Shown in pieces: positions 8,051-51,078 of a stretch of 64,000 nt of DNA (its first letter is position 1; each line of letters begins with the position of its first letter). The notes under the pieces are model-generated. The model searched no databases. It saw only the letters and a list, made by a program, of their open reading frames with translations, and was not told where the DNA came from. The DNA comes from a virus (lineage: Duplodnaviria > Caudoviricetes): the IMG/VR virus record IMGVR_UViG_3300022602_000027; one strand, 5' to 3'. The position numbers were made by a program, and so were the translations under genes.

Positions 8051-8430
8051 TCGCCTTGTTCTGCTAATTTTGATACTGCTGATTTTTCTTTGCGGTCTTT
8101 TCTAAAATTATCTACGTCTTCTATAGCACTGAGCAATGTTTGAGCATAGTTAAATGCTTGCTGTCGACGCATAACTAGAGTAGACTCTGTATCGACGTAG
8201 CCTTTTGTTAACAACGACCAAATAGCATGCCACCGATCCTTGTAAAACCAATTGCTTTTTACAGTTGTATAGATAGTAACACTAACTTCATGATCGTCAG
8301 CTTCTACCCATACATGATGATCGTGATCAGAAGCACCGCACTCGCAAGTAACTCGGTAGGCTTTTGAGTCTCCCCAGTCGTTTGTTTGCATAATGCCTTC
8401 GGCTGGTACTTGTATTTTTAGATCAGTCAT
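8041..8430 (-). CDS. hypothetical protein (129 aa)
   Basis: ORF track; CEC...HDHH possible metal site. Confidence 0.7.
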   Translation of the reverse strand: MTDLKIQVPAEGIMQTNDWGDSKAYRVTCECGASDHDHHVWVEADDHEVSVTIYTTVKSNWFYKDRWHAIWSLLTKGYVDTESTLVMRRQQAFNYAQTLLSAIEDVDNFRKDRKEKSAVSKLAEQGDCE

Positions 8431-9185
8431 TTTGAAGCATACTCCTGTTGCATTTTGATATTGTCAAAGAATTCTTTCTTTGTACCTGGATCATCTTTAA
8501 ATGCACCTTTTAATACTGTAGTCTGCGTTAAACTACTCTTAGCCATAATGCCTCGATTCTCACAGCAACCATGCGTAGCTTGAATGTATACACCTAAGTC
8601 TGTAGCGCCTGTGGTTTTTTCTATTTCCCTAGCAATATCGTTACACAACTCTTCCTGGAGAGTGCCGCGACGAGCACACCACTGAGCAATACGAGTGTAC
8701 TTAGACAAACCAATAAGTTTTTGTGCGGCGATGATACCAATGTAAGCGACACCAGTAACGGGCTGATGATGATGACTGCACATAGAGCGCAACTCACTAC
8801 GTACCACCAACATACCTTCGTATCTGTCTTCGCCATCGTTTGGAAATGCTGTTGCGTCTGGTGCTGGGTCATATCTGCCACTCATTACTTCATTAAAATA
8901 CATCTTAGCAAGGCGACGAGCTGTGCCTTTGCTATTAGGATCGTTTTCACGATCAATAAGCAAACGGTCAAGCACTAGTTCAAATGCTTCTGTTGCTTCA
9001 TCAATTAGTTTATCTTTAAATTCTTCTGTAACGTATTCGCTAATATTATCGCCAGCCCAAAAGCGTTTGCCTTCTCGTTTCATTTTAAATCGAAGATGAT
9101 CGCCTAGATATGCTTCTTCGTAACCGCCGTCGCCTGCCATAGCATCTAACCCTGTCTCAAATTTATATGTTTGTGATTCTGTCAT
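8427..9185 (-). CDS. folE: GTP cyclohydrolase I
   Basis: SMCSHH, GLSKYTR, TLQEEL and ATHGCCENRG motifs of GCYH-I. Confidence 0.93.
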   Translation of the reverse strand: MTESQTYKFETGLDAMAGDGGYEEAYLGDHLRFKMKREGKRFWAGDNISEYVTEEFKDKLIDEATEAFELVLDRLLIDRENDPNSKGTARRLAKMYFNEVMSGRYDPAPDATAFPNDGEDRYEGMLVVRSELRSMCSHHHQPVTGVAYIGIIAAQKLIGLSKYTRIAQWCARRGTLQEELCNDIAREIEKTTGATDLGVYIQATHGCCENRGIMAKSSLTQTTVLKGAFKDDPGTKKEFFDNIKMQQEYASK

Positions 9186-9792: not shown

Positions 9793-9986
9793 TATTTCTT
9801 TCCAAAACGTAAACCAGTAATGCTACCTAACAATAAGAAATAAGCAAGCCATGTTTCTAATGTATATGGAATATGTAGCACTGGAAACAGTGTATTTAAA
9901 CTCCATATGCCTACAATAGGCCCAAATACAATAGCAATTACAATGAATGTAATACCAAAAATTAATTTAATTAATGCTGATGTCAT
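9792..9986 (-). CDS. small membrane protein (64 aa)
   Basis: Start moved to ATG 9986 (ATGA overlap with the PRTase stop); two hydrophobic segments. Confidence 0.65.
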   Translation of the reverse strand: MTSALIKLIFGITFIVIAIVFGPIVGIWSLNTLFPVLHIPYTLETWLAYFLLLGSITGLRFGKK

Positions 9987-10477
9987 AACCAAAAATCCTC
10001 CCACGGATAAACTAACCAGCAGTCTTCCTCTGCTTTGTTTACGGTCCAAACATAATAGTCTGGATCTTTAAATTCACTTGAAAAATTGTGTGTCAATACG
10101 GCAAAGCGAACAGTGTCTCCCCAGATGCTTGACCAAGCAGGATGTCCAGGTAATGCGCTTGATTCCCAGTCTTTCTTAATCCAGTTAACAGTAGATCCTT
10201 GATCATTGATATCATCAACAACTAGTATCTTTTTACCTTCAAAAGCATCTTCTGCCATGTTTAAATTACTAACCTTATCTCCACCGTCACGTAAACTAAT
10301 ATCTAAACTGTTCATTTTAATACCAGTATATTGACTTAAGAGATTAGCAGGAACAAGCCCGCCTCTAGTAATGCCTACAATATAATCAGGTTTCCAATTG
10401 TGTGCTGACATTTGGCGAGCAATATCTAATACTGCTCCTTCAACTTGTTGCCAGGTATAATAAACTTTTTTTATCAT
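9983..10477 (-). CDS. purine (xanthine/guanine-type) phosphoribosyltransferase
   Basis: VGITRGGLVPA and PRPP-binding loop ILVVDDINDQGST; C-terminal WLVYPWE typical of Gpt-like enzymes. Confidence 0.88.
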   Translation of the reverse strand: MIKKVYYTWQQVEGAVLDIARQMSAHNWKPDYIVGITRGGLVPANLLSQYTGIKMNSLDISLRDGGDKVSNLNMAEDAFEGKKILVVDDINDQGSTVNWIKKDWESSALPGHPAWSSIWGDTVRFAVLTHNFSSEFKDPDYYVWTVNKAEEDCWLVYPWEDFWL

Positions 10478-21499: not shown

Positions 21500-24061
21500 T
21501 TAACGTCGAGCTATTTGCAACCAACGAGCTAGTTCTGCGTCTACTGATTCTTTTTGTACTTGTCCGTTATTTGTAACTGTTTGAGTTGTACTTACTGGTG
21601 CAGTTGGAGTGTTAACACCATTTCCGCCAATAGTAGTACCAGCTGGTACCATTGGTACAGTTAATCCTTTTGGATCTGCATTTTGTCCAGACTGTGGAGG
21701 TTCACATTTAACGGAATCAATAGCCGCTTGACCGTGAGCTAAACCTTGTTTAACAGCAACATCATTTTGATCAGCTTGTTGTAGTTGTTGCATTTCGCCT
21801 TTGATAGTTTGAATCAATTGCATTTGTTCTGCGCTACATACTACTTTAGCATTTGCATCTTGTTTATTTGCATCTTGTTTACTTGGATCGGCATTTTGTA
21901 CACCGCCACCGCCACCTGCACCACCACCACCGCCACCTGCACCACCAGCATCGCTTGCGGCATATAATCCGGCACCAACTGCTCCAGCAGTAATTAAACC
22001 AAGTGCAATGGCTTTTTTAGGATTAGCTTTAATCCAGTTAGCAATGCCTCCTGATTTAATTTCTTGTTTTTCTATATCAGTTAACGCAGTACTAGACATA
22101 GCTTTAGTTTCTGCGGCGGCAAGTTCTTCTTTGCTTGCCTTAATCATTGTATTTTGTGCGGCTGTTAAATCATTAACAGTTTGGCTAGCAGGCGTGTGTG
22201 TTCCCATGTTCTGGTTAGCACTTGCTTGATTGTTCTTTATAGTGTTTGGATTTTTTGGATCTGCTTTATGAACTGTTACATTTGGATTAGCAGCCTTGTC
22301 AGCGGCATTTACAGCTGATTTTTCTCCGCCAGCAACTGTTTTATCAGCGGCTTTTGCCGCACCACCGCCGAACATTCCGGTTAGTTTATTCCAACCTGTT
22401 TTTAGACCACCGCCAATTTGATTTCTAAATCTACTAAAGAAGTTTCCGCCTACTTCGTCAGCCGCTAATCCAGCACCTGATTTTTCAAACAAGAAATTTT
22501 CACTTAGGTATTCTTCTGCGTTGGCAATTTCCCATCCATCTTCACTGTATAGTACATTGTTTTCGTCTAAGTATACCCAAACATCTTTTGAATTTTCAAT
22601 ATCATTTAAACGATTGCGTAGACTTGCAATACTTTCTGCAAGAGTCAACGGAGCACTTTCCGAAATGCCGGCAGTTGAATAAGTAGTTGCATCTGGCTTA
22701 CCTGTAGCAGGTAAACTATTCTTTTGTTGCCATGCTTGTAATGCTTTTTGTGTTTCTGGACCAAACTTACCATCAGGTTTAACACCGATAGTTGATTGCA
22801 AAGCCGCTAGTTTCTGATCACCACCGGCAGCTAATACTGCTTGGTCAGATGCCGCTCTAGCCGCATCGGCAGCCATAAATCCACCAACAGCGGCACCTTG
22901 TTTCCCAACAAACTTAGCGGCACCTTTAGCGGCAGCACCTGGATTGGCTACAACTTTTGCCCCAGTAGTTGCGGCCTTTTGAGCGGCTAATGCCGCTAAT
23001 TCTTTTGCTCCTAATTTTCCAGCACCGCGAACTGCCGCACCGGCAGCACCAACGCCTGGAACTAAGAACGGAGCAACCATGCCTGCAATTTCTCCACCTT
23101 TATATAAATTAGGACTACGTGCTTGTGCCGCGGCATCTGCATCATATTCTTTACTTAATTCGTCTTTATACTTTGTACCATTCCACAAGCTCTTAACACC
23201 TGCGTTAATATTATTGCCAAATCCAAATGTAAGACCTTGTTCAGCCCCGCGAGCTGTATCACCAACATCTTGTCCAAATTGATTTAAACTATATTCTGCT
23301 ACTTGTTCTTCATCTTCAAACAAATATCCAAAACTTTCAGTTAATTCTCTTGCAAGACTTTCTTTGTTTAATTGCTTGTATGCATCAACACCGGCCGCAC
23401 CTAAAGCTCCGCCTATAGCTCCTGGAATCCCAGCAGTTAATCCACCGGCACCTGCACCACCAGCCGCCGCGATTCCAAGCTCGGGCCAATTAAAAGGTTT
23501 GCCTGTTTTAGGGTCGATTTTTTTAGGATCCGTATCTTGTTTTGTATTAGGTGCTGGAGCAGGTGCTGGAGCAGGTGCTGGAGCAGGTGCTGGAGCAGGT
23601 GCTGGAGCAGGCTGTGCTTTTTGCAATTGATCAATAGCCGCATATAATTTTTGCAAATGCTCTTGTTTAAATTCTTCTTTTTCAGCTCTAGTATTAGCTG
23701 TTTGGCTCATACCTTGTAAGCCTTTGTCGTATTCGTCACCACTGTAACCTGTTAGACGACCAAAGAACGATGATGTTTTTGCTTTTTGTGGTAATAGACC
23801 TTTATCAGCAAGTTGGTAGTCAACATCTTTACTAGCTGTTCCCCATTGTTTTTGACCTTGGTTATTAACAAATGCACCTGATACTGGATCATATAGTCCT
23901 GGAACTTGATATTGTGTTGCTAGTTGTCCTAGAATTTGAAAACGTTTTGCATCATCTTGCTCAGTACCTGCAATGGCCTTTTGGATGTCTGCCATTGCAG
24001 TTTCATCTAATTTATAGTTTTCTAAAATATCTATTCTTTGAATAAGGTCTTTAATGTTCAT
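21500..24061 (-). CDS. Ala/Gly-rich probable virion internal/ejection protein with peptidoglycan-binding domain (853 aa)
   Basis: PG_binding_1-like LQSTIGVKPDGKFGPETQKALQAWQQKNSLPATGKPD; several hydrophobic Gly/Ala segments; Pro-Ala linker. Confidence 0.6.
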   Translation of the reverse strand: MNIKDLIQRIDILENYKLDETAMADIQKAIAGTEQDDAKRFQILGQLATQYQVPGLYDPVSGAFVNNQGQKQWGTASKDVDYQLADKGLLPQKAKTSSFFGRLTGYSGDEYDKGLQGMSQTANTRAEKEEFKQEHLQKLYAAIDQLQKAQPAPAPAPAPAPAPAPAPAPAPNTKQDTDPKKIDPKTGKPFNWPELGIAAAGGAGAGGLTAGIPGAIGGALGAAGVDAYKQLNKESLARELTESFGYLFEDEEQVAEYSLNQFGQDVGDTARGAEQGLTFGFGNNINAGVKSLWNGTKYKDELSKEYDADAAAQARSPNLYKGGEIAGMVAPFLVPGVGAAGAAVRGAGKLGAKELAALAAQKAATTGAKVVANPGAAAKGAAKFVGKQGAAVGGFMAADAARAASDQAVLAAGGDQKLAALQSTIGVKPDGKFGPETQKALQAWQQKNSLPATGKPDATTYSTAGISESAPLTLAESIASLRNRLNDIENSKDVWVYLDENNVLYSEDGWEIANAEEYLSENFLFEKSGAGLAADEVGGNFFSRFRNQIGGGLKTGWNKLTGMFGGGAAKAADKTVAGGEKSAVNAADKAANPNVTVHKADPKNPNTIKNNQASANQNMGTHTPASQTVNDLTAAQNTMIKASKEELAAAETKAMSSTALTDIEKQEIKSGGIANWIKANPKKAIALGLITAGAVGAGLYAASDAGGAGGGGGGAGGGGGVQNADPSKQDANKQDANAKVVCSAEQMQLIQTIKGEMQQLQQADQNDVAVKQGLAHGQAAIDSVKCEPPQSGQNADPKGLTVPMVPAGTTIGGNGVNTPTAPVSTTQTVTNNGQVQKESVDAELARWLQIARR
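23550..23609. repeat. 5 perfect tandem copies of the 12-mer GGTGCTGGAGCA (encodes Pro-Ala linker)
   Basis: Counted directly; two copies of the same 12-mer recur at 40191-40214. Confidence 0.95.
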
Positions 24062-27486: not shown

Positions 27487-27713
27487 TTTGTTCTTCCTCT
27501 AAAGCCTGTACCTACTGCACGTTCACCGCCCATAAATTTAGGTAAACTAAACCACAACTTAAACCATTCTTCAGTTCCGGGTTGTATATTTTGCTCACGC
27601 TCTATAATTCGTTTCTCTGTACCAGTTATACTAATATTACTTCCGCCATAAGGTTGAAGTCCTTTAAACTCTGTAATGCCTGCCAACTTCTTAAGACGTG
27701 CTAGTTCATCCAT
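27483..27713 (-). CDS. hypothetical protein (76 aa)
   Basis: ORF track; MDELARLKKLAGITE start; stop/start overlaps on both sides. Confidence 0.7.
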   Translation of the reverse strand: MDELARLKKLAGITEFKGLQPYGGSNISITGTEKRIIEREQNIQPGTEEWFKLWFSLPKFMGGERAVGTGFRGRTK

Positions 27714-28156
27714 TACTTAAGACTCGCTCTCAACATCCAGCTGTGTTTTTTATGTGCATCTTGACGATCAGCCAAGAAATTGCTTAGTCCATGATCACCA
27801 TGTCCTTCTGCCATATCAAAAGTAATACGAAATATTTCTGACATCTTTTCGCTATCTGCTAACAATTCACTTAACATTCCATGTGTATCGGGAACAGCAT
27901 TTTCATCTTCAACTGCTGATAACAAACTAAATTTTTGTAGGCTAGCAGGTGTATATACTTCTAACGCACGAATTTGTTCAGCAAATGTATCAATGCTACC
28001 GTATACTTCGTCATAAATTCTTTCAAACAATAAATGCAGTTGATAAAATATTGGCCCTTCACAGTTCCAATGAAAATTTTGTGCCTTTAATGCAAAGGCA
28101 TATTCACTGGCAAATGCAGTCTTGAGTGCTAAATGATATTTGTTTGATTCTTCCAT
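27713..28156 (-). CDS. dps: Dps / ferritin-like DNA-protecting protein
   Basis: NFHWNCEG, LHLLFE and DTFAEQIRAL ferroxidase ligands; C-terminal HKKHSWML. Confidence 0.9.
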   Translation of the reverse strand: MEESNKYHLALKTAFASEYAFALKAQNFHWNCEGPIFYQLHLLFERIYDEVYGSIDTFAEQIRALEVYTPASLQKFSLLSAVEDENAVPDTHGMLSELLADSEKMSEIFRITFDMAEGHGDHGLSNFLADRQDAHKKHSWMLRASLK

Positions 28157-28710
28157 TATACACCGTACTTGTTACGAGGTTTTTGTGCAACTGGACTAGT
28201 TTGATTTACAGTTGACAACTCTACACTAGGCTTACTAGTTTTTAAGCTAGTCTTATGCCCTTGTCGTTTAATTTCTTTATCAAACCTTGCATGTTCTTCA
28301 GGAGCGAAAGGCATAAAGAATGGATGCTTACCGATATTGTCGGCAGTGGCAATATTACGATCCCCGGCTGCTAGTCCCATACCTAATCTATATACACCGT
28401 AGAAATCGCTTGGTAAATCTTCTACACTAAATGCTCCGGGCATCGCAGCCTTTGATTCATCGGATAAATCTCCTCGAATACTACCGTATTCATTATTATC
28501 TTGATGACGACTATGCGTGTCATGCGGGGATCCATCTTTTGGAACCCCTAACTTACCTGATGTAAATGATTTAGGGTTGTATTTTTTTGTAGCTTGAGTT
28601 ATTTTACCGTCCTTTTTTGTTTGCGCAAGAGTTTTACCTTGACGATCAACTTTGTCAGGGTTGCTTATGCTATCATCAGCAGATTCGATAATAAATTCTT
28701 TAGCTCTCAT
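28156..28710 (-). CDS. RNKYG-family hypothetical protein, paralog 3 (184 aa)
   Basis: Starts MRAKEFIIES, ends SPVAQKPRNKYGV. Confidence 0.8.
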   Translation of the reverse strand: MRAKEFIIESADDSISNPDKVDRQGKTLAQTKKDGKITQATKKYNPKSFTSGKLGVPKDGSPHDTHSRHQDNNEYGSIRGDLSDESKAAMPGAFSVEDLPSDFYGVYRLGMGLAAGDRNIATADNIGKHPFFMPFAPEEHARFDKEIKRQGHKTSLKTSKPSVELSTVNQTSPVAQKPRNKYGV

Positions 28711-29094
28711 TTAAATTCCGTATTTGTTTCGTTTCTTAGCGGCTACAGGACTTACATTGTGTACATCATCGGGTTCGTGGCTTGGAGTACGTGGACGAAC
28801 TTGATGGTATTCTGTAGGTATTGCTTTATGAACTTGCTGTATCATTTCATGTTCTTTATCAGTATATGGGTGTAAAGTCCACATAGTCCCCATCCAGCTT
28901 TCGTGATCAATATCAAGTTTTTCATTACTACCGTCTGCCATTGCTAGTGCCATACCTGTACGCAATTGGTGATATGATGGATACCAACCACCTGGATCAC
29001 GCTGACGGCTGTATCCTTGATGGACTGCTTCGTGGTCCGGATGCGTTTGCCCAGATCGTTCAGTTATGAATTCTTTAGCTCTCATTTAAATTCC
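28694..29094. repeat. identical 26-bp direct repeat spanning two stop/start junctions (28694-28719 and 29069-29094)
   Basis: AATTCTTTAGCTCTCATTTAAATTCC read at both positions. Confidence 0.9.
28711..29085 (-). CDS. RNKYG-family hypothetical protein, paralog 2 (124 aa)
   Basis: Starts MRAKEFITER, ends SPVAAKKRNKYGI. Confidence 0.8.
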   Translation of the reverse strand: MRAKEFITERSGQTHPDHEAVHQGYSRQRDPGGWYPSYHQLRTGMALAMADGSNEKLDIDHESWMGTMWTLHPYTDKEHEMIQQVHKAIPTEYHQVRPRTPSHEPDDVHNVSPVAAKKRNKYGI

Positions 29095-32000
29095 ATACTT
29101 GTTACGTTTAGGCTTAGCCACTGGACTATTCTTATTAATGTTGTCTGGCTCGCGACTACGATCTGATAATACTGTTGGATTACCGATGCCTAAAGTTTTT
29201 CCGGCTGCTTTGATGATTTCTAAATCTGCATCACTATATGGTGCTAGTAAAGGATCTCCAGCAAACCAACTTGCAGTGGGCATGTCGATATTTTCATCTG
29301 CATTAGGGTGAGCACCTGCTAGTGCAAGTCCAAAACGATATTGCAGATAACTACTACCGTTTGATTTATTCATGCTAATGTCTGGATAACTAACTGCATT
29401 ATTAAGCCCTGCGATTGAATTATGTGAAAGCTCTTGAACATCGCCTTGTCCAGCATAAGGCGCATCTTTAGTAGCCGCTGTAATTGTAGCTTTTTCGTTA
29501 AGTTGTTTTCTTGTAAATTCGCTTGCTCGCATTTTTCTAATCCAGTTGTTGGCTTCTTTTATATTTAGCGGTTCAACAGGTGGCTCATCTTGTGCTGGAA
29601 CTTGTGCCGGTATTTGAGGTTGTGGGTTAGGATCACGCTTATCAACAACATTTACAGAAGCTCCGGGAACCATGCCCATGCCCTGCTGTGTTACTTGCAT
29701 TAGATGTTTAATCCAAGAATCTGGTAAAGGTTTAGCACCAAATGATCCGCCATTAAACGCATCTCGCCAAAATTCCATAGCTGGTTCTTTATGACCATGT
29801 GCCGCCAATGCTGCCATTTTGCGTAGTTGTGTGCCACTTACACCTTGTCCACGTGGCGTAACATCTAAACTTGCGCGAACGTGTTCGTAACCAGCAAACT
29901 TGTTAACTGCTTTCATTAGAACTTGTGCAATATTCATATTAGCACGATCCTCACCCACCATAATAACAATATTGTCGTATCGCGGAGGTTTGCCTGGTAG
30001 CGGATTGATTAATTCGTGTTTAATCTTTTGTAGTAGTGTACCGCCTTCATGTGTGACTGTACTCATATGGCTAGCATATTGCGGATACAATTTATGCCAT
30101 GTTTGAACTTTGATGCTAGGAGGAATAGGATCATCCTTGCCTTCTGCATTGCCAATAAACAAATATGGATCACCGCCTAATTCTTTAGCCTTGTTAACTG
30201 TATAATTCCACAGCTCTTGATGTCCTTTGTGTCCAACAAACGACCCTATAGCAACTACAGCAGTTTTATTAGTGTTTTCACGAGTCTGTTCAGCTCTTGC
30301 GGCAGCCTTGGCAGCATTTTTATTTGCAATAATTTGACGTTGCTCTTGGCTGGTAACCTTAATAGGACCTAATCTACTATTAATAACAATACCTTCGTAT
30401 TCATCACCTAGTAAATTTTTACCAACAATATTAGGATCGTTAATAATAGCCTTTTCTAATTCTAGTGCTATCGGTTGTAGTATTTCTTTAGCTTCACGTT
30501 TTAGTGCTAGTTTTCCACTAGTTAACATTGCTTTAATTTGTTCAATGTTCTCCATTGGGGGAACAATGGCAGTAACATCTAGGGCTTTGTTTTGTGTTAA
30601 TCTATTGTTAATAAACATAACACTATCTTGTTGTCCAAGTTTTGTTAATTGTTCAACTACTTTATGCCCATCGGGGATTGACTCACCTGTAGTTGCATCA
30701 CTAACATGGAACGGAACAAGAGCTAATTCAATACCTTCAGGCAATTTGTCATAGTGTATACCGACAAATTTTAATTTACCTTCTGGTGTTTCTGTAGCAA
30801 ATGGAATGAATAAGACTTCACATGTTACTTGTTTGTTTACTAAAAATTCTGGACCTAACTTACTGTCTACTAATTCTATAGCTTTCATCATTTCGTTAAA
30901 CAAGTCATCAAACATTTGAGCACGACCTAGTATGTCCGGATCAGTTGTTCCTTTTTGTTGATGGTATTTTACAAATCCAGGTTCATAACGTGGCTCAGTA
31001 CGGCTAGTACCCATAAAAGGTTTGCCTTCTGCATTTTTACCAAAGCGTCCACCAAAGCCGTCTACTTTAACATTAAGTGGAATATTCTTTAATTCAAACT
31101 TACCATTGTCGTGTAGCTCGTCTAGTAAATCTAATAAGTCCATTGGTTTTAAATCACGCAAGTGTGGCATACCTTTACGTAATTGTGCTTTAACTTCAGC
31201 TTCAGTTAACGGACGACTAGCATTACGAGCCGCACGTAGTTTGGCAACTTGTGCTCTTGGTTGACGTTCTTCAGGATAATCTTTTTTATACTGTTCAACC
31301 TCGTGATGCTCTTCTTCATAATCAGCCGCCATTGTTTTAGCTTTAGTTTCTAAAGATGCTTTGTCGGTTAAATTAAGATGTGCTAGTGCATAATTAATAG
31401 CAGACATTTTAACAGCACGATCGCCTTCTGGATCGTCTCTGTTTATCATTTGTGAACCTACTTCAAAACACAATTGAATAAAAGCATCCATTGTTATTTG
31501 ATTTTCTTCAGGAGTTTTAAAAGTATTCATTAAATCAATAGTACCAACAAAACTTTTTTGTTTTTCGCTTTCCTGTTTATTAGGTTGACGACCAAAGAAT
31601 AATTCAAACTGTTGATTTAAATCTTGTATATAGGGTCTATCTTTAGTAGGTATTTCAATCATAATTGGAATACCGTCCTGCTCGCGTCCAGTTTCTTGAT
31701 ACTTTTGACTCAATCCGCCACCAGTAGTTCCATGTACAGCAAATGATATGTTACTGTCAGTGATTGGACCTTTTAATTTAGTCTTCATCTGAACATATTT
31801 TGTTGTAGGTGATCCTTTAGTTAATGATCTATACAAGTATTTGTGGAACACACCTTTGATGCCGCTGACTACCCCAGTGCCATCCTTCTTGCCTTTTTCC
31901 TGCGCACTTAAATCGTTCCACTCTGAGTTGTGACTGAATCTATACCAAGGAGTCGGTGCATTAGTCTTTTGGTCATACTCACCAAATTCAAAATCTATTT

Positions 32001-32496
32001 GTACTTTGATAGGTAAATGATTTGATGTAATTTCAAATAATGCATTAAATTGTCCGCCGTTGTTACTAAATCCTAGTAACTTTGCAGGACCTACTTGTCT
32101 TCCATGATGTGTTGTTAAAAAGTTTTTAACTTGTGGTTCTAAATTTCTATCGCATTGTGTATCTATATCACCGACTACTGGTTTTACTCTTAAAAATTCT
32201 TCGTCTGATATATGCGGTACATTAAAAAAGTGCAGTGATGAACCTCCTAAGAATTCTCTACTCTTTAATAGTTGAGGATTCCATAGTGGTGTACTATTTT
32301 GTGCTTCAAATGCTTGATTAATTCCGTGCAGGACTTGATCTAATATTCCAATGACTTGTGTACGATTGTGTACAGCTAAGTCTATACGATCGGCACGATG
32401 TTTAATATTAGGATCGTTAACATCATCAACTTCGGCATTACCGCCTTCAACAATGATAATGTGGGGTTTGCGTACAAACAACTCTCGTAATAGCAT
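29086..32496 (-). CDS. multidomain nucleotidyltransferase-like protein (Pol-beta-type + ATP-dependent ligase-type + HIGH-type) with C-terminal RNKYG module (1136 aa)
   Basis: LGGSS...GDIDT...VQIDF; NVKVDG...CEVLF...YEGIVI...IKV; GSFVGHKGHQ...VSGTQLR; C-terminal MRASEF...SPVAKPKRNKYGI. The ORF is certain; domain calls are by eye. Confidence 0.6.
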   Translation of the reverse strand: MLLRELFVRKPHIIIVEGGNAEVDDVNDPNIKHRADRIDLAVHNRTQVIGILDQVLHGINQAFEAQNSTPLWNPQLLKSREFLGGSSLHFFNVPHISDEEFLRVKPVVGDIDTQCDRNLEPQVKNFLTTHHGRQVGPAKLLGFSNNGGQFNALFEITSNHLPIKVQIDFEFGEYDQKTNAPTPWYRFSHNSEWNDLSAQEKGKKDGTGVVSGIKGVFHKYLYRSLTKGSPTTKYVQMKTKLKGPITDSNISFAVHGTTGGGLSQKYQETGREQDGIPIMIEIPTKDRPYIQDLNQQFELFFGRQPNKQESEKQKSFVGTIDLMNTFKTPEENQITMDAFIQLCFEVGSQMINRDDPEGDRAVKMSAINYALAHLNLTDKASLETKAKTMAADYEEEHHEVEQYKKDYPEERQPRAQVAKLRAARNASRPLTEAEVKAQLRKGMPHLRDLKPMDLLDLLDELHDNGKFELKNIPLNVKVDGFGGRFGKNAEGKPFMGTSRTEPRYEPGFVKYHQQKGTTDPDILGRAQMFDDLFNEMMKAIELVDSKLGPEFLVNKQVTCEVLFIPFATETPEGKLKFVGIHYDKLPEGIELALVPFHVSDATTGESIPDGHKVVEQLTKLGQQDSVMFINNRLTQNKALDVTAIVPPMENIEQIKAMLTSGKLALKREAKEILQPIALELEKAIINDPNIVGKNLLGDEYEGIVINSRLGPIKVTSQEQRQIIANKNAAKAAARAEQTRENTNKTAVVAIGSFVGHKGHQELWNYTVNKAKELGGDPYLFIGNAEGKDDPIPPSIKVQTWHKLYPQYASHMSTVTHEGGTLLQKIKHELINPLPGKPPRYDNIVIMVGEDRANMNIAQVLMKAVNKFAGYEHVRASLDVTPRGQGVSGTQLRKMAALAAHGHKEPAMEFWRDAFNGGSFGAKPLPDSWIKHLMQVTQQGMGMVPGASVNVVDKRDPNPQPQIPAQVPAQDEPPVEPLNIKEANNWIRKMRASEFTRKQLNEKATITAATKDAPYAGQGDVQELSHNSIAGLNNAVSYPDISMNKSNGSSYLQYRFGLALAGAHPNADENIDMPTASWFAGDPLLAPYSDADLEIIKAAGKTLGIGNPTVLSDRSREPDNINKNSPVAKPKRNKYGI

Positions 32497-32498
32497 GG

Positions 32499-32873
32499 TT
32501 AGTCCTTGTACTTGCCTTCAGCATGGTGTTGACTGTGATCATCGTATAATTTTTCACATACCTGCTTAAGAGTGTCTTCATCTAAGTTGTCTGGAAGTTC
32601 ACGAATAGGAAATTGTTTAATATAGGATTTATAACTGTCTTCTACGGCTGTTTTAAATATTCCAGGCTTTGGATCTTTTTTGCTATCTTTGATTTCTAAG
32701 AATTTAGCAAGTACTGGATATGTGTAACGACGATAGCAATGATCGTCATGCTCCATGAAATGTGTTAGATCATCAACAATGTCATAGTTAATACTGCGAC
32801 GTCCATCTTCTTCGTGTTGTACAAAGTCTGAATCTTTGAAGAAAGTACCTTCTAATAGTTCTCTTAAGCGCAT
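32499..32873 (-). CDS. hypothetical protein (124 aa)
   Basis: ORF track; MRLRELLEG start resembles neighbours. Confidence 0.75.
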   Translation of the reverse strand: MRLRELLEGTFFKDSDFVQHEEDGRRSINYDIVDDLTHFMEHDDHCYRRYTYPVLAKFLEIKDSKKDPKPGIFKTAVEDSYKSYIKQFPIRELPDNLDEDTLKQVCEKLYDDHSQHHAEGKYKD

Positions 32874-32930
32874 TTTTAAGCCCGTTATAATAATTCAGCA
32901 GAAAACTCTGCGGTTAGAGTATTTATCGCT

Positions 32931-33539
32931 TTAGCTTTTAACTATACGCTCAACTTTGGCTATGCCCTCACCTAAATGCATACGTGTTAACAGCAGATTT
33001 TTGTCCCCTGTAAGGTAAAAATGCGTCCCACCCCAGGTTCGATTCCTTAATAGTTCACGCTTGGCGCTTTTAGTTAGTTTAAGATTTTTATTACCCTCAG
33101 CCCATTCGATAAATGCTGAATGCTCGTGAGTAGTTTTACCCAGGGTAATTCTGTAGTCAAAGTTCATCTTAGGCATGATAACTGTATCTTTTTCTAATGT
33201 AGCATTAGGTTTTGGACTTGATACGTACTTTACCTTTAATTTATCTAATTTTACAATCTTATCTACTTGCTTTAAGTCATTTAAGTATACACTAAGCCAT
33301 GGTGATTCTACTCTGACTTCAATATCTACTAATGTATTAAGTGTATTTGCTAATTTGATAGCATAATCTATATCGTCTTTAGATTTAATGCCGTGTTGTG
33401 TACTCGTTAGGCGAGCTATTGTACTATTAAAGTCCCCACTACGAAACCATTGAGCCCCAACTAGGGACAGCACAACTTTGTGCTGATACTGTCCCCTAAA
33501 TAGCTTAGTTGTAGTCTTATACTGCATCAGGAATTTCAA
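32931..33539 (-). CDS. hypothetical protein (~200 aa)
   Basis: ORF track; likely start MQYK at 33527. Confidence 0.7.
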   Translation of the reverse strand: MKFLMQYKTTTKLFRGQYQHKVVLSLVGAQWFRSGDFNSTIARLTSTQHGIKSKDDIDYAIKLANTLNTLVDIEVRVESPWLSVYLNDLKQVDKIVKLDKLKVKYVSSPKPNATLEKDTVIMPKMNFDYRITLGKTTHEHSAFIEWAEGNKNLKLTKSAKRELLRNRTWGGTHFYLTGDKNLLLTRMHLGEGIAKVERIVKS

Positions 33540-35802
33540 CTAACGGTTGTGTAGCATCTACAGTTAGCAATGGTAATTTAGACTCTTTAGGTTTGCTAAC
33601 TAGACTAATCTTATCATCAACAACTGTGATAGTTACCCACCCGCCGTTCTTTAAATCACCAAACAACATGGCTTTAGCTAAGTCACGTTTAATTTCCTTG
33701 TCAATGACACGTTGTAATGGACGAGCACCCATCTTAGCATCAAAGCCTTTGGTAATTAACCATTCTGTAGCTTCTTTGTTGATCTTAATACGAACGCCCT
33801 TGTCTTTAACTTGATCTTTAAGCTCATCAACAAACTTGTTAACAATTTTAACCATAGTGTCTTTACCTAACTTGTTAAATGTAACAACACTATCTAAACG
33901 ATTGCGGAACTCTGGAGTTAAGAACTTCTTCAAGTCGGCATCGCTATAGTCTTTCTCTTGTGCGCCAAAACCAATTGCATTTTTTTCTGCTGATTGTGCG
34001 CCAGCATTAGTAGTAAGAATAAGAACAATGTTACGGCAGTCTGCTTTCTTACCATTTGATCCTGTAATAAAGCCATTATCCATCAGCTGTAATAACACAG
34101 TCATTACATCTGGATGTGCTTTTTCAACTTCATCTAACAACAATACAGCATTAGGTGCTTCTTGAATCTGTGTAATCAACTGTCCAGCATCTTCTTCAAA
34201 GCCAACATAACCTGGAGGGCTACCAATCAGCTTACTGATGCTGTGCTTCTCTTGATATTCACTCATATCAAAACGTAGCAACTTAACTCCTAGGTTCTTA
34301 GCAAGTGCCTTAGCAGTTTCAGTCTTACCTGTACCTGTTGGACCCATGAATACAAATGACCCAACAGGTTTATTTTCTGATTTAAGTCCTGCTTGTGCTA
34401 CTAAGATCTTATCTACAACTTCAGTAAGAGCTAAATCTTGTCCGTAAACTTGCTGTGAAAGATTTTCTTGTAGGTTAACAAGACTGCTAGATTCTGTTTC
34501 CATAATCTTTTCTTCAGGCATATTAACTACTTTGGCTAATTCAAACTGAATTTCTTTTTCAGCAACAATACGTTCATCGGCAAGTTTAAGATTAAATCGT
34601 GAACATGCCAAGTCAATTAAATCGATTGCCTTATCTGGTAATTTCTTATCAGCTTGATACTTAACTGACAACTTAATAGCGGCATCAATCGCGTCATCAC
34701 GGATCTTAACATTGTGATGTGATTCGTAATATTTCTTGATACCTTTAAGGATTTGACGTGTAACTTCGATTGTAGGCTCATCAACAGTAATGCGTTGGAA
34801 TCGACGCATTAGGGCACGATCCTTTTCAAAGTGTTTACGATATTCTTCCCAGGTAGTACTTGCCACAACTTTAATGTTGCCTTTGCTTAGAGCCGGTTTC
34901 ATCATGTTAGCAAGATCGTTAGCAGAGTTGCTAGCAGATCCTGCGCCAGAGATCATATGTGCCTCATCGATGAACAGCACAGTCTTACCTTTCTTAGCCA
35001 ATCCTTTTAGAACCATCTTAAAGCGTTCTTCAAAGTCGCCACGATATTTAGATCCAGCAAGCATAGCTGAAATGTCTAAACTGTAGACTTTGTAATCCTT
35101 GAGGAATTCTGGGACTGCGCCCTGTACTATGTTGTATGCTAAACCTTCGGCTATAGCCGTCTTGCCTACACCAGGATCTCCTACTAGGATCACGTTGTTC
35201 TTGTTTCGACGACCCATTGCTAGTGCAATGTTTTCTAATTCGTCTACACGACCAATAACCGGGTCAATCTTTTTCTTAGTAACTTCGTCATTTAAGTTTA
35301 CAGTAAATGCTTTTAAAGCACGATCACCTTGCATATTACCTGCAGGTGATTCCTCTTCTTCGCCTTCTTCTACAGAATTATTAATGTAGTCGGCAAATTT
35401 GTCTTTGTCAATATTAGCTTGTTGAATATAGAATACAGCCCAACTACGCTTTTCTCCCATCATGGCAAGGAATACATCAGTTGGCTCAATCTTTTGACGT
35501 CCATTAAACAACACTTGAGTAAATGCACGATTAAGTACACGTTCAACTGCTTGTGTCTTTTTAGGTTTAACTACTACATCTTGTAGAGTAATTTCTCCAC
35601 ATTTATTATTCAAGTAGTCTGATAGATTTTGTTTTAATACATCTGAATTACTTCCAAATCCTTGCAATGTATTAGTAAAGTTGTCATCTGACAACATGGC
35701 AAACAACAAATGCTCGATTGTTAGATATTCGTGATGTAATTTCTTAGCAGTTTCGATTGCTGTTTCAAATACTGCTTGTAGATTATCGCTTGGTTCAACC
35801 AT
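33517..35802 (-). CDS. clpA: ATP-dependent Clp protease ATP-binding subunit ClpA
   Basis: Clp N-domain HEYLTIEHLL; NBD1 GDPGVGKT and FIDEAH; NBD2 GPTGTGKT and LLDEVEK; ClpP-binding loop AIGFGA; GARPL; no ClpB middle domain. Confidence 0.95.
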   Translation of the reverse strand: MVEPSDNLQAVFETAIETAKKLHHEYLTIEHLLFAMLSDDNFTNTLQGFGSNSDVLKQNLSDYLNNKCGEITLQDVVVKPKKTQAVERVLNRAFTQVLFNGRQKIEPTDVFLAMMGEKRSWAVFYIQQANIDKDKFADYINNSVEEGEEEESPAGNMQGDRALKAFTVNLNDEVTKKKIDPVIGRVDELENIALAMGRRNKNNVILVGDPGVGKTAIAEGLAYNIVQGAVPEFLKDYKVYSLDISAMLAGSKYRGDFEERFKMVLKGLAKKGKTVLFIDEAHMISGAGSASNSANDLANMMKPALSKGNIKVVASTTWEEYRKHFEKDRALMRRFQRITVDEPTIEVTRQILKGIKKYYESHHNVKIRDDAIDAAIKLSVKYQADKKLPDKAIDLIDLACSRFNLKLADERIVAEKEIQFELAKVVNMPEEKIMETESSSLVNLQENLSQQVYGQDLALTEVVDKILVAQAGLKSENKPVGSFVFMGPTGTGKTETAKALAKNLGVKLLRFDMSEYQEKHSISKLIGSPPGYVGFEEDAGQLITQIQEAPNAVLLLDEVEKAHPDVMTVLLQLMDNGFITGSNGKKADCRNIVLILTTNAGAQSAEKNAIGFGAQEKDYSDADLKKFLTPEFRNRLDSVVTFNKLGKDTMVKIVNKFVDELKDQVKDKGVRIKINKEATEWLITKGFDAKMGARPLQRVIDKEIKRDLAKAMLFGDLKNGGWVTITVVDDKISLVSKPKESKLPLLTVDATQPLVEIPDAV

Positions 35803-36286
35803 TTAATTTCCTTTGCTTTTTGCGTGCCATTTTTAATTTTAAATCACTTACATATTCTGTAAATGTAATACCGTCTAAATGATCCAATTCATGTTGGAAA
35901 CATCTAGAGTCGATGCCTTCAAGTTCTATTATACACTGTTTGCCAGTATTGTCAAGATACATGGCAGTAATTTTATCGCTTCGTTTAATTTTAAGCCATA
36001 AGTTTGGAAAACTTAAACACCCCTCGTCGGCATCAATGTTTGCATTATCACCTACAAGAATAGTAGGATTGAAGAAACCCATTTCTCGTCCATCTTTGAG
36101 TTTCATAACAAATACTCTGCGTAGTAATCCAACTTGATTAGCGGCAAGACCAATACCGTTATTTGCTTTCATAATCTCAAGCATTTCTCTTTCGATTACT
36201 GCGGCATTGACATGATTTTCAAAATCCCAATTCTCAGCTTTTTGCTTTAATATTGGATCAGGTTCTTTGACTAATTCTAGCATCAA
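35795..36286 (-). CDS. def: peptide deformylase
   Basis: All three motifs present: [13 protein letters not shown] and QHELDHLDG. Confidence 0.95.
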
Positions 36287-37124
36287 TATCTTTCAGTTGT
36301 TGAATGATTGAAGGATCAACTACAGTAGTTGGTTTAATTTTAATTACTGATACGAATCTGCCTTTAAATCCAGTGTTCACATTTGGAAATCCTGTACCAC
36401 TACTAGCAAACTCAGTACCATGTTCAATACCCGGGCGGACTTCTAAATCTAATTGAACTCCATCTAAGTTTTTAACTTTCTTTCTAGTTCCAATCATAGC
36501 TTCAATTGGACTAATTTCTACATTGTGATATAAGTCATCTCCTCGGCGTTCATAATTAGGATCAGGCTGAACTAAAATAGTAACATTTAAATTACCACGT
36601 GGTGAACCTGGAAGACTATCATCACCTAATCCAGGATAACGAATAGTATCTCCGTGACTTACACCGGGCGGCACATTAATTACTACATTTTGATTTCGTC
36701 CGCTTGGTAATCTATAATTTGCTTCTAGTTGCTTTCCTTTGTATGAATCGACAAAACTAACAGAACATTGAATATTTAAATCTCGATTACGGCGCATACC
36801 TTGCGCACGATGCATTTGTCCGAATATATCTCCAAATGGGTTTGCACCGCCAAACCCTTGTCCAAACATATGACCAAACGGATCAAAACCGCCACCAGTG
36901 TTAAACTGGAACTGTGGTCCAGCACCAAATTGACGTTGTTGATCGTATTCGGCTTTCTTTTGTGGGTCGCTTAGATTTTCATAAGCAACACTAATATCTT
37001 TAAATTTAGCTTGGTCTCCACCTTTATCCGGATGATGTTTATTAGCCAAGCTTCTATATGCTTTCTTTATTTCTTCAGGTGTAGCGTTTTCGTTAACACC
37101 TAGTGTTTGGTAATAATCAGTCAT
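36258..37124 (-). CDS. dnaJ: DnaJ-class co-chaperone (type II, CbpA-like, no Zn finger)
   Basis: J-domain with HHPDKGG, G/F-rich linker, C-terminal [10 protein letters not shown]...RGNL and RRGDDL. Confidence 0.9.
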
Positions 37125-42866: not shown

Positions 42867-43295
42867 TTAACGTGCAAACATATCAGGTGTAAATGTTTGT
42901 CCTTGTGCCTTTGTGTGTTGTCCAATTGTTTCCCATTCTTCTCCGGGCTTTTCATCTGAAACCATTAGGATTGCTTTAATATCTGCTCGACGAACAGTGA
43001 TTTCTTTTCCGTCATCATCATCTAAAGTAATACCGCGGGTCCAACGACCGTGCTCTAATAGTATCCAATCACCTACCTTGACATCTTTTTGTTCAGGGCC
43101 AATTGCCCAAACACGAGCCCAACGGTGACGAACGCCTTCTGTTTTACCATCGTCACTTAGTATAACAATGCCGCCTTTTGAAACTCTTCCGTCAAAATTC
43201 ATGTCAGTAACGAGAACGTTATCACGAATAGGTTTAAGTTTACCTTTTAATTTAGGTTTGTAACCTTCGTGCCCAATACCTTTTGATACTGCCAT
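42867..43295 (-). CDS. groES: co-chaperonin GroES-like
   Basis: LKPIRDNVLV, SKGGIVI, VWAIGP and VKVGDWIL. Confidence 0.85.
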   Translation of the reverse strand: MAVSKGIGHEGYKPKLKGKLKPIRDNVLVTDMNFDGRVSKGGIVILSDDGKTEGVRHRWARVWAIGPEQKDVKVGDWILLEHGRWTRGITLDDDDGKEITVRRADIKAILMVSDEKPGEEWETIGQHTKAQGQTFTPDMFAR

Positions 43296-49205: not shown

Positions 49206-50054
49206 TTAGCCTAATGCGGCGCTCATAGCGATTGCTAAAGATTTAAGATTTGTTCCGCCCACTGTTAATGTTCCAGTTACATTAACATTACTTACATTAG
49301 CAGTTCCAGTAATAATAGGGTTAGTCATAGCAGGGCTAGTGCTAGTTAATAATGTTCCACTACTTGGAAGTATTAGATTAGAATTACCTAATAAATTTAA
49401 AGTTAGACTATGATTACCTACAGTAATTAAATTACCGCTTAATACTAATTGATGATCCTGACCGTCTTGAACAAGATCGGCAGTTGTAATGTATCCAAAA
49501 TTTATATGATCATTTGTAGTTGTAAAATTTGTACCAAAGTCCCATGAGTATCCGCCACTAGTTTGTCCATTGCCTGCAGGAATCATTGGAGCGGTTTCAA
49601 ATCCAGTAGGGTTACTAAAAGACCCTAAGTCTACATTTAAATTATTATTGTCTATAAGGATGGATAACAAATTGTTACTGATGCGTTGATCGTATCCGTA
49701 CACTGTTGTTTTACTATCCCCACCGTAAATGTAATTGTTATTTAGGTTTAAGTTATGCGATAATGTAGGATTTGGATCAGTTGAAAGAGTAGCAATTGAT
49801 TCTAAATTTACAGTAGTAGCTGTATTTGTAATTGATACAGTTGCACCTATGCTAGTTAGACTTTTAAATTCTAAATTGCCATTAGTGGTGTCCTTCCAAA
49901 TACCAGTACCAGATCCTACATTTGTAGCACCTGTTATAGTAGTACTTAACAGAGCAAAACTGTTATTAACTCGTTGAAATGCGGTACGCAAATCGTCACC
50001 TGTACCGTCATTTGCGTATGTTCCTAGTTGTACTGGTAGTAATAATTGTGTCAT
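49206..50054 (-). CDS. baseplate/tail protein with T4 gp9/gp10-like N-terminus (282 aa)
   Basis: LGTYANDGTGDDLRTAFQRVNNSF. Confidence 0.7.
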   Translation of the reverse strand: MTQLLLPVQLGTYANDGTGDDLRTAFQRVNNSFALLSTTITGATNVGSGTGIWKDTTNGNLEFKSLTSIGATVSITNTATTVNLESIATLSTDPNPTLSHNLNLNNNYIYGGDSKTTVYGYDQRISNNLLSILIDNNNLNVDLGSFSNPTGFETAPMIPAGNGQTSGGYSWDFGTNFTTTNDHINFGYITTADLVQDGQDHQLVLSGNLITVGNHSLTLNLLGNSNLILPSSGTLLTSTSPAMTNPIITGTANVSNVNVTGTLTVGGTNLKSLAIAMSAALG

Positions 50055-50079
50055 TGTTGCCGCTCTCTTTTAGTATTTA

Positions 50080-51078
50080 TTAATAACTTGGGTACCATTT
50101 TGATGTACCGCCGTCGTATGTCATAATCATTGCTTTAGATACCACTGCGGTTGATGCTAGGGCAATATTTCCACTTGTACTAGTAGTCCATATTCCTGTA
50201 GGAATAAGTGTAATTTGCCCGCCATATGTTGCAATTCCGCTAGGCGGGGTAATGGTAGTAATTTGTGTAGTCCCTGATATAAATGTAATTGGGTTAGTTG
50301 GTGCAATAGTTGTTGCACTACCTATTGTTCCAGCGGTCTGTGCTGTGGCTACAATACCTACTGTGGTTGTACCGTTTAGAGTTGGACCATTATTGCTTAA
50401 TGTGATATTAGTTGCCCCACCACCACTTTGTAGAGCACCATTAAATTTAACTGCGCCGTTATACGTAGTAACACCACCAATGGTAACTGATACCGTTCCG
50501 CTTGATCCAGTGCCAATATTGATATTAGTTGTAGAACCTGTTGCACCGTTAGTACCGATGTTTACTGTTTTAGTAATTGTATTTGCTACTGAGGCAGTAT
50601 TAATGTTAGTTGTACTATTTGCACTTGTACCATTATATCCTAATGTTAATGTAGTAGCACCGTTAGCAAAAGTAAGAGTAGAAGCCGCATTAAGTAAAGC
50701 TACGCTTGTATTAGGAGTTGCAAAAATAGTACTAGTGCTAGCGGAACCGTCAATATTTCCAGGAATTGTAAAATTTCCTGTGTTACTTAACGTAGCAGTA
50801 TAACTGCCATTAGTTAACGAATTAGATGTAAGAACTGCCCAACTTAAACTTGTTCCGTTTGTAGTTAATACTGCTCCGCCATTATTAGTCTGGCTTGGTA
50901 TAGATGTGACATTAGAAGATAATGCATAAGAACTTAGTGTACTAGTTAAACTTGTCGAAGTTACGTAACTAGTATATAAATCTGTAAAATTAGCATTTAT
51001 TTTAGTAAACGCAGTACGTAGCGGATCGCCAGTACCATCGTTGACTGTAGTTCCTATATTGATTGTTTGTTGTGTCAT
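50080..51078 (-). CDS. baseplate/tail fibre protein with T4 gp9/gp10-like N-terminus (332 aa)
   Basis: IGTTVNDGTGDPLRTAFTKINANF; T/S/G-rich. Confidence 0.7.
   Translation of the reverse strand: MTQQTINIGTTVNDGTGDPLRTAFTKINANFTDLYTSYVTSTSLTSTLSSYALSSNVTSIPSQTNNGGAVLTTNGTSLSWAVLTSNSLTNGSYTATLSNTGNFTIPGNIDGSASTSTIFATPNTSVALLNAASTLTFANGATTLTLGYNGTSANSTTNINTASVANTITKTVNIGTNGATGSTTNINIGTGSSGTVSVTIGGVTTYNGAVKFNGALQSGGGATNITLSNNGPTLNGTTTVGIVATAQTAGTIGSATTIAPTNPITFISGTTQITTITPPSGIATYGGQITLIPTGIWTTSTSGNIALASTAVVSKAMIMTYDGGTSKWYPSY

Follow-up and report, generated by a model that had tools for sequence, protein, structure and literature searches.

A putative capsid-targeted polyprotein combining three nucleotidyltransferase folds in an apparent T4-superfamily jumbo phage

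Proteins that enter the host with the phage DNA act before the phage genes are read and so decide whether the first defences of the host are survived; few such injected cargo enzymes are known, T4 Alt and the N4 RNA polymerase being examples. In T4, the capsid-targeting sequence (CTS) is MKTYQEFIAE (PMC8442874), in which residues 4 and 7 serve targeting and residues 8 and 10 serve cutting (PMC9026906), and Alt is trimmed at both ends (PMC9026906; PMC3012670). Among enzymes of nucleic-acid repair, RlaP, a Pol-beta nucleotidyltransferase (NTase), works beside RNA ligases, adding one or two nucleoside monophosphates to the 3' ends of damaged RNA (PMC12776372; PMC7824862), and NgrRnl seals nicks having RNA as the 3'-OH strand (PMC4408790). 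Described here is P0001, a single uninterrupted open reading frame (ORF) of 1136 amino acids (aa) at 29086-32496 on the minus strand of a 64,000-nucleotide stretch of viral DNA (IMG/VR record IMGVR_UViG_3300022602_000027; Duplodnaviria; Caudoviricetes), hereafter the window, which joins three NTase folds in one chain and looks, from its leader and junctions, like a capsid-targeted polyprotein.

A preliminary description of the window had read one polypeptide with three unrelated nucleotidyl-transfer folds from short patterns in this ORF. The ORF proved intact and the patterns were recovered: GGSS at residues 84-87, GDID at 109-112 (D110 being nt 32167-32169) and VQID at 165-168 for the Pol-beta superfamily; KVDG at 477-480 (K477, nt 31066-31068), CEVLF at 559-563 and EGIVI at 701-705 (from nt 30396) for the ligase/capping superfamily; GHKGH at 755-759 (from nt 30234) and VSGTQLR at 886-892 for the HIGH type; and RNKYG at 1131-1135 for the last module. 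As judged from the models described below, these are not chance motifs and sit in the expected folds. The features of the locus are the following:

29086-32496, minus strand: whole ORF P0001, predicted polyprotein (at least 584 homolog clusters at 90% identity; 921 matches among 50%-identity cluster representatives)
32446-32496, minus strand: residues 1-17, capsid-targeting-like leader MLLRELF...IIVE, with a predicted cut after E17 exposing G18-G19-N20 (from [LIVMF]xE-GGN statistics)
31282-32445, minus strand: residues 18-405, Pol-beta superfamily NTase, PolX/TUTase-like (G85-S86, D110-x-D112, D168; from the AlphaFold model, fold searches and conservation)
31201-31209, minus strand: L430-T431-E432, then A433, junction of the N-terminal and ligase-like modules, predicted protease site (conserved h-x-E)
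30292-31200, minus strand: residues 433-735, covalent (lysine) NTase of the ligase/capping superfamily, nearest to RNA ligases (from the model, fold searches, conservation and phrog_12709)
29662-30279, minus strand: residues 740-945, HIGH-superfamily NTase, NMNAT/PPAT/FADS-like (H756-K-G-H759; S887-x-T889-x-x-R892; from fold searches and T4-GC190 homology)
29533-29661, minus strand: residues 946-988, linker rich in proline and glutamine, in which an I-K-E site (978-980) precedes the tail module
29089-29532, minus strand: residues 989-1136, fused internal-protein-like tail module with its own M-R-A-S-E-F...L-N-E leader and the C-terminal end SPVAKPKRNKYGI
28711-29085, minus strand: 124-aa stand-alone tail-module paralog (MRAKEFITE...KRNKYGI)
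28156-28710, minus strand: 184-aa stand-alone tail-module paralog (MRAKEFIIE...PRNKYGV)
32499-32873, minus strand: 124-aa gene that opens the operon, 2 nt ahead of P0001; its leader MRLRELLE is followed by G
32919-32927, minus strand: GATAAATAC, a T4-late-promoter-like motif that precedes the first of the leader-bearing genes by 47 nt

Sequence searches alone said little about this chain. The Pfam search returned a sub-threshold FAD_syn match only (residues 741-774), FAD_syn likewise matching below its cut-off in 19 of 41 family members, and neither Pfam NMNAT nor CTP_transf_like rose above threshold for P0001. PHROGs gave two families of unknown function, phrog_19290 (residues 13-378) and phrog_12709 (462-638), together with the 'cytidyltransferase' phrog_3041 over residues 727-895 (E 3.6e-10), and sequence searches of the PDB retrieved RibF alone (E 0.14-0.5). 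The family itself is large, its 945-residue core being 50-60% identical, and six further long homologs carry no informative additional Pfam domains. In the cultured-phage collection there was no near-identical DNA and no full-length protein match to P0001; cultured carriers of family modules are the Xanthomonas phages BUDD and X1, Campylobacter group II phages, and T4-like cyanophages. The exact gene was found in lake and freshwater metagenomes of at least 16 studies from 2012 to 2023, which makes it a real, recurrent phage gene, and a lake metatranscriptome held two short identical contigs of it, which are not proof of transcription.

The folds were modelled with AlphaFold2 on residues 1-405 and 425-950, utilising alignments of 70 sequences (A2) and of 41 diverse homologs (A3), and residue conservation was counted in an hmmalign alignment of 268 homologs. 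The model of the N-terminal module (N module) has a mean pLDDT of 92.4 and a pTM of 0.89, with low pLDDT at residues 9-18. Its top list in a Foldseek search of the PDB consists entirely of family X polymerases (Pol lambda, beta and mu; E ~1e-3), AlphaFold DB clusters agree with a PolX-like fold, and a language-model search returned PolX palm and thumb clusters (scores 0.85 and 0.76). By VIA-align, the module matches TUT7 (Z 8.0), Trf4 (7.5) and Pol beta (7.3, 199 residues aligned), then ASFV PolX (Z 6.6, 159/176 residues aligned), with cGAS/OAS/CD-NTases and a CCA-type enzyme lower at Z 5.4-7.0. A thumb-like second subdomain is present, and G85, S86, D110, D112 and D168 are invariant (225/225). 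Having the hG[GS] turn, the D-x-D, the third carboxylate and the fold, the N module is a member of the Pol-beta NTase superfamily. Within that superfamily the model resembles PolX, which stops short of membership in the family as such, no Pfam PolX model matching P0001 or 70 homologs. Identity with RlaP was rejected (PF10127 without a match in P0001 at E up to 1 or in the 70 homologs at 0.01), as was that with a CCA-adding enzyme or CD-NTase, the candidates of the preliminary description, for which there was no Pfam match and structural Z was 5.4-6.7, below TUTases and PolX. Stand-alone homologs of the N module measure about 350-390 aa.

The model of residues 425-950 (mean pLDDT 92.7, pTM 0.74) holds two domains. 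The first, residues 433-735, has NgrRnl (Rnl5), REL1 and Rnl2 as its nearest structural neighbours (NgrRnl Z 10.6, REL1 9.6, T4 Rnl2 9.4, followed by Rnl3 at 9.0), with DNA ligases at Z 8-9. Ligase motif I is K477-V-D-G, motif III E560, motif IV E701-G702 and motif V K713, and the conservation is near complete: K477 in 183/184, D479 and G480 in 184/184, E560 in 187/188, E701 and G702 in 192/192, and K713 in 193/193. Since the model puts the lysine of KxDG and the other three motifs on the strands expected for them, this domain is, as modelled, a covalent NTase. There is no OB domain after it in the model, which continues with helices and then the Rossmann domain of the HIGH type, and the DNA ligase matches end at about model residue 299; classical ATP-dependent DNA ligase or capping enzyme identity was rejected, the OB-fold domain that it requires being absent from the model. 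On the question of Rnl1, Rnl2, Rnl3 or Rnl5, no Pfam RNA-ligase model matched P0001.

The second domain, residues 740-945, matches the NadM NMNAT (Z 11.9), PPAT (11.2) and FAD synthetase (10.0), so that NMNAT, PPAT and FADS lie within about 2 Z units of each other. H756 is kept in 181/182, H759 in 182/182 and R892 in 187/187, G758 and T889 are also conserved, and with the (H/T)xGH signature, the second motif and a Rossmann-like fold this domain is a HIGH-signature NTase. The fold check proposed in the preliminary description, AlphaFold and Foldseek domain by domain, thus came out in its favour: all three predicted folds match the named superfamilies and the catalytic residues are conserved in the homologs. 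As the folds match and those residues are essentially invariant, the three-fold architecture is taken to be real.

The same description had supposed the protein to be virion-delivered, and this is well supported by the leaders and h-x-E junctions, the late-promoter-like motif, the internal-protein-like tail and the virion proteomics of homologs. Stand-alone homologs of all three modules carry leaders such as MKTFKQFLSE, MKKFKQFLKE (directly followed by GGN), MLTFKTFLGE and MNSFKQYLQE, which agree with the T4 CTS at all four key positions; to judge by these sequences, they possess capsid-targeted leaders of the T4 type (positions 4, 7 and 8-10), P0001 having a longer variant. Among 223 N-module homologs, [LIVMF]-x-E abuts GGN in 189, the protein starts as M-GGN in 29, and 5 are otherwise; the preceding sequence therefore ends in a site of the T4-protease type, and the leaderless forms start at the predicted mature end. 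Consistently, E17 is kept in 193/198 and GGN in 196-197/198. At the border of the N and ligase-like modules, where position-specific junctions alone were counted as evidence of a cleavage site, [ILV]430 is kept in 150/156, E432 in 142/158 and A433 in 131/158, and in ligase-like homologs that stand alone the leader stops no more than a few residues from the aligned E432 position.

The tail module (989-1136) can be aligned over its full length with both small ORFs immediately downstream, all three starting with MRA[KS]EF and ending with SPVA..[KP]RNKYG[IV], and the same fused module, with Met and leader retained, occurs in 19 homologs; by this alignment, the tail of P0001 is a fused copy of a once separate gene. 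Possible deletion joints between tail-module genes were seen in metagenome contigs (window 27656-29058, for example 28711 to 29058 and 27715 to 28760), which are unreliable because one side of each rests on 22-42 nt; if the joints are real, the copy number of the RNKYG-module gene varies by recombination.

Four consecutive genes (32873 down to 28156) bear leaders of the MR[AL][KR]E[FL] type behind GATAAATAC. Of the seven minus-strand ATAAATA sites, five precede a gene start by 20-47 nt (those of tail-fibre-like and holin-like genes and of this operon among them), and the shorter [GA]ATAAATA[CT] is kept almost exclusively at that distance on the coding strand, while TATAAATA is found 0 times on either strand of the whole window vs 9.1 +/- 3.5 expected. 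As for virions, gene 1-56 of Campylobacter phage IBB_35 (E 1.1e-87 to the N profile), whose leader MKLSELMFILE runs straight into GGN, was among the virion proteins by MS/MS with 17% coverage (PMC3322345 supplement), and the 'citidylyltransferase' T4-GC190, which has the leader MKKFSAFLNE in cyanophage S-SM1, was found in purified S-SM1 virions along with gp21 (PMC3037559). This gp21, the T4-type prohead protease, is reported for both IBB_35 and S-SM1. From the homologs, leaders and junctions we infer packaging and cleavage of P0001 itself, packaging in the virion being very probable and cutting at the sites named below probable.

Two further genes of the window may be recorded here. An 853-aa protein with a peptidoglycan-binding domain (21500-24061, minus strand) has the N-terminus MNIKDLIQRIDILE, and its 288-aa counterpart in metagenomic contig L005 (12319-13185) starts with MRIRELFE; these leader-like N-termini suggest a further packaged or ejected wall-binding protein. 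Right after the leader-bearing gene cluster lies a Dps/ferritin-like DNA-binding protein (PF00210, 2.5e-22; 27713-28156, minus strand), which is in the same place in L005.

Across the family, the modules occur stand-alone, as N plus ligase-like pairs, as ligase-like plus HIGH pairs, and as triples, always in the order N, ligase-like, HIGH; among the 50%-identity representatives, stand-alone ligase-like modules have about 300 aa and HIGH modules about 200-270 aa. In Xanthomonas phage BUDD, the genes form a row of N (E 6e-82), a 333-aa gene without a PDB relative, ligase-like (E 6e-38), and an annotated adenylyl/cytidyltransferase, this HIGH gene being identified from its annotation and an HNGH motif alone, as profile A3 gives no match. 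In metagenomic contig L001, a short N-like gene is followed by the ligase-like (1e-110) and HIGH (4e-14) genes and then by one of 117 aa. Three candidates were set aside: the 354-aa gene of L001 as an N module was ruled out, the flanks of the N-only gene in metagenomic contig L002 had no BLAST support as ligase-like or HIGH genes, and the HIGH homolog of an E. coli jumbo phage stands alone among small genes and was dropped as a model.

A fold search of BFVD indicated that 'cytidyltransferase' proteins of T4-like cyanophages share the ligase-like plus HIGH structure. The link to cyanophages was established solely through family member P0252, whose HIGH part is 40-42% identical to the cytidylyltransferase of S-SM1 and S-RIM2, and through profile A3, which finds S-SM1 SSM1_190 (T4-GC190) at E 1.7e-17; family profile A1 had no match to S-RIM2 proteins. 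Upstream of it, SSM1_189 displays the ligase-like pattern HLE..L.D..F...KWDG...FG with a weak match (E 0.014), and a ligase-like plus HIGH gene pair is present in both S-SM1 and S-RIM2. The ligase-like and HIGH modules were fused or adjacent in every lineage examined. T4-GC190 itself was present in all 16 T4-like cyanophages compared (PMC3037559), and no assigned function was found for this core gene, whose name 'cytitidyltransferase' is used in no paper of the library searched.

Other genes lie close to stand-alone or fused family members. In contigs L001 (7999-8613), L002 (619-1017) and L006 (14380-14898), these encode a phosphatase (HAD_SAK_2), a P-loop kinase of the polynucleotide-kinase-like AAA_33 type and a nucleotidase (NT5C), the kinds of end-healing or nucleotide enzymes found in RNA-repair loci. 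In Campylobacter phages CPt10 and IBB_35, the N-module gene directly follows a radical-SAM gene.

Taken as a whole, the explanation put forward here, which we regard as evenly poised between right and wrong, is that of a late-expressed capsid-cargo polyprotein that is cut, injected, and employed in the repair of nucleic-acid breaks. P0001 would be made late by a freshwater T4-superfamily jumbo phage and carried into the prohead by its leader, where the prohead protease would cut after Glu at h-x-E, namely between E17 and G18, between E432 and A433, and between E980 and A981 and/or E1002 and K1003. Three products would result: (a) a PolX/TUTase-like NTase whose free N-terminus reads Gly-Gly-Asn; (b) an enzyme of two domains, one an RNA-ligase-like lysine adenylyltransferase and the other an NMNAT/PPAT-like HIGH NTase; and (c) a small basic piece resembling an internal protein. 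Ejected together with the DNA, they would go to work as soon as infection begins: the Pol-beta enzyme would extend a 3'-OH by one or a few nucleotides, the ligase-like enzyme would seal through K477-AMP, and the HIGH domain would make or recycle an adenylylated donor or intermediate for the latter (an NAD-like dinucleotide, or App-nucleic acid).

The repair of breaks, in RNA or in incoming DNA, is the likeliest job, argued from analogy and given slightly less than an even chance; the substrates and any coupling of the three activities are put forward as proposals. In the closest working analogies, a template-independent or gap-filling NTase is paired with a nick-sealing ligase, as are RlaP with RNA ligases in RNA repair and the enzymes of DNA-break repair of the PolX or LigD type. 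In RNA editing, a TUTase and REL1 form such a functional pair, and both are top structural matches here. Two sub-variants are entertained, neither being favoured: the mending of RNA, of host or phage, that defence nucleases have cleaved, and ribonucleotide-patch repair of the incoming genome. Packaging in advance speaks for a target that needs handling before phage gene expression, which is the entering DNA, and a fused tail resembling DNA-embedded internal proteins fits such a target; contrary to this sub-variant, the nearest structures of the ligase-like module are RNA ligases.

A more specific proposal, which we hold only tentatively and think rather unlikely, is that P0001 typifies an injected, zymogen-like class in which the prohead protease activates the enzyme by exposing GGN and the ligase-like and NMNAT-like modules form one coupled enzyme. 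Under such a scheme, for instance, the ligase would be charged via a dinucleotide from its own HIGH domain, or the incoming genome would undergo ribo-patch repair before phage gene expression. If true, the proposal would also give a function to the cyanophage pair of ligase-like and cytidylyltransferase genes.

Several observations weigh against the cargo and repair explanation and deserve fair consideration. The leader of P0001 is a 17-residue variant less T4-like than those of the stand-alone homologs, and there is no prohead protease gene within the 64-kb window. The homologs in BUDD and Vibrio phage Va1 are leaderless, so packaging is not universal, and in the cyanophages the HIGH gene alone has a leader, the ligase-like gene being leaderless. 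A generic internal pattern of CTS plus hxE was not enriched in the longer homologs (21 observed vs 23 shuffled). The N module is most often alone and is missing from the cyanophages, so that coupling of the three activities is not required. P0001 has no fused kinase or phosphatase for end healing, and the margin of RNA over DNA ligases is small (Z 10.6 vs 9.0, about 1.5 Z units). The HIGH domain is the least explained part, the options being the synthesis of NAD or another adenylylated dinucleotide, and the formation or reversal of App-nucleic acid.

The strongest of the competing explanations, albeit an unlikely one, is that of a set of unrelated cargo enzymes sharing a delivery route only, which comes close to the view of the preliminary description. 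The N and ligase-like modules would mend tRNA after its cleavage by anticodon nucleases, and NAD+ would be rebuilt independently by the HIGH module (from NMN and ATP) against NAD-depleting defences. The independence of the N module just described is in its favour, as are the unrelated domains that follow HIGH in other homologs (DUF6321, HD_4, Amidoligase_2), the NMN/NaMN adenylyltransferases that head the HIGH matches, and the phage NMNATs known to counter NAD depletion (PMC7824862; PMC9503650). Set against these, the ligase-like and HIGH modules are fused or adjacent throughout the lineages examined, a linkage that speaks for a common task; moreover, an NMN-producing partner of the NadV type was not seen next to the modules, and the Pfam NMNAT and CTP_transf_like models stay below threshold for P0001.

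It is improbable that P0001 is a cytoplasmic, unpackaged enzyme, engaged for example in nick sealing before packaging or as a replacement DNA ligase, whose leader and h-x-E sites serve folding, regulation or another protease. Leaderless homologs, the leaderless cyanophage ligase-like gene, and a P0001 gene whose neighbours are ClpB-like, DnaJ and deformylase genes, not those of the head, would suit such an enzyme. The homologs of two modules detected in virions would not, nor would leaders that fit the key positions of the T4 CTS, a late-promoter-like motif common to tail-fibre-like and holin-like genes, and an internal-protein-like tail fused to the chain.

A slim chance is given to a maker of some small nucleotide product or nucleic-acid cap, be it a dinucleotide, an oligonucleotide signal, a decoy, or a 5'-cap-like structure (of the NAD, FAD or dephospho-CoA type). 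The cGAS/OAS/CD-NTase folds do turn up among the weaker matches of the N module, at Z 5-7, but lie below PolX and TUTases, which also extend over a larger part of it; guanylyltransferases do belong to the ligase/capping superfamily, but the top ligase-like matches are all polynucleotide ligases; and while pyrophosphate-linked dinucleotides are products of HIGH enzymes, no cyclase-type partner or effector context was seen. Very improbable, and the weakest of all, is a host-takeover protein modifier whose Pol-beta module, perhaps with the ligase-like one, nucleotidylylates host proteins on entry in the manner of T4 Alt on RNA polymerase, since the N module is not of the minimal MNT/NTox45 type, has the thumb-like second subdomain and finds its best matches among polynucleotide polymerases, despite the precedent of injected, RNA polymerase-ADP-ribosylating Alt (PMC9026906) and the Pol-beta NTases of polyvalent proteins, which were predicted to modify proteins (PMC5512222).

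With regard to the genome, the DNA polymerase of the window has its nearest relatives in T4-superfamily jumbo phages (Phosso, Atu_ph07 and E. coli phages of 350 kb), and homologous contigs reach 179-352 kb with conserved synteny. A chaperone set at 33517-37124 and 42867-43295 (both minus strand) comprises a ClpA/ClpB-like double AAA+ protein (761 aa), a peptide deformylase, a DnaJ-like and a GroES-like protein. In the contigs of 179-352 kb (L005, L006), the order DnaJ, deformylase, Clp, small genes, triple NTase, Dps-like ferritin, PG_binding protein and PolB is kept. Three minus-strand genes at 6967-7821, 8427-9185 and 9983-10477 encode a QueE-like radical SAM enzyme (3.5e-51), a GTP cyclohydrolase (8.5e-44) and a phosphoribosyltransferase-like protein, a set which looks like a 7-deazaguanine (preQ0-type) pathway and suggests modified DNA. 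At 49206-63887 (minus strand), three consecutive ORFs of 282, 332 and 4269 aa have the common N-terminal module MTQ..IN.G...NDGTGD.LR..F.K.N.NF..LY. and a short PHROG match to a baseplate-wedge N-terminus, and probably encode giant proteins of fibre-like type that share an attachment module. A 412-aa HNH endonuclease (phrog_1314, 1e-114) is located at 752-1990 on the minus strand.

The finding points to a very abundant and highly conserved family with three intact active sites, two of whose modules have relatives in virions, and it furnishes a concrete lead for the 'cytitidyltransferase' core gene of cyanophages. The enzymes of the family are small, modular and easily assayed. The preliminary description had known of no protein with this architecture; this stands for the fusion, as far as a term search of the jumbo-phage, polyvalent-protein and NAD-system surveys goes, and does not extend to the parts, which belong to large uncharacterised phage families.

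Compared with known systems, T4 IPI-III and Alt, injected head proteins that are targeted by a CTS and processed by gp21, are alike in their short leader with aromatic residues, the [LI]-x-E cut site, the small, variable, clustered genes, and the possibility of enzyme cargo (Alt); unlike these internal proteins, which are without the folds in question, P0001 is a 1136-aa chain of three NTases plus an internal-protein-like piece, with predicted internal cuts. The pairs of RlaP and RNA ligase in bacteria and jumbo phages likewise link a Pol-beta NTase to an RNA-ligase-type enzyme for adding and then sealing (PMC12776372; PMC7824862), whereas P0001 is without a PF10127 match, lacks healing domains of the kinase or phosphatase kind, and has an N module that resembles PolX and includes a second subdomain, together with the HIGH fusion and the capsid-targeting signals. 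Bacterial LigD, which prefers ribonucleotide-tipped ends, and ASFV PolX with its ligase also combine a small gap-filling polymerase with an ATP-type ligase; LigD differs in having a polymerase of the archaeo-eukaryotic primase fold and a ligase with an OB domain, P0001 having a Pol-beta fold, no OB domain, and the extra HIGH domain. Fungal Trl1 (LIG-KIN) is the top AlphaFold/Swiss-Prot match over both domains of residues 433-945 (E 8e-7), with low TM-scores of 0.16-0.24, and it too places a three-layer alpha/beta nucleotide-binding domain after an RNA-ligase adenylyltransferase domain, except that its second domain is a P-loop kinase and not a HIGH NTase.

T4-GC190 has in common with P0001 the HIGH homology, a CTS-like leader and a preceding ligase-like gene with KWDG, but it stands as a gene of its own (385 aa) with additional N-terminal sequence, has no Pol-beta module nearby, and shows T-V-G-H rather than H-K-G-H as its first motif. 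The polyvalent proteins of phages and conjugative elements surveyed by Iyer et al. 2017 resemble P0001 in carrying many effector domains per polypeptide that are co-delivered with DNA and possibly processed (PMC5512222); a term search of that survey returned no RNA-ligase or HIGH domains in such proteins, and Pol-beta NTases in the conjugative-element versions only (PMC5512222), and P0001 differs further in having no MuF or portal-linked anchor domain. The kinds to which P0001 belongs are nevertheless already known, namely CTS-targeted injected proteins, polyvalent cargo proteins, and repair pairs of an NTase and a ligase.

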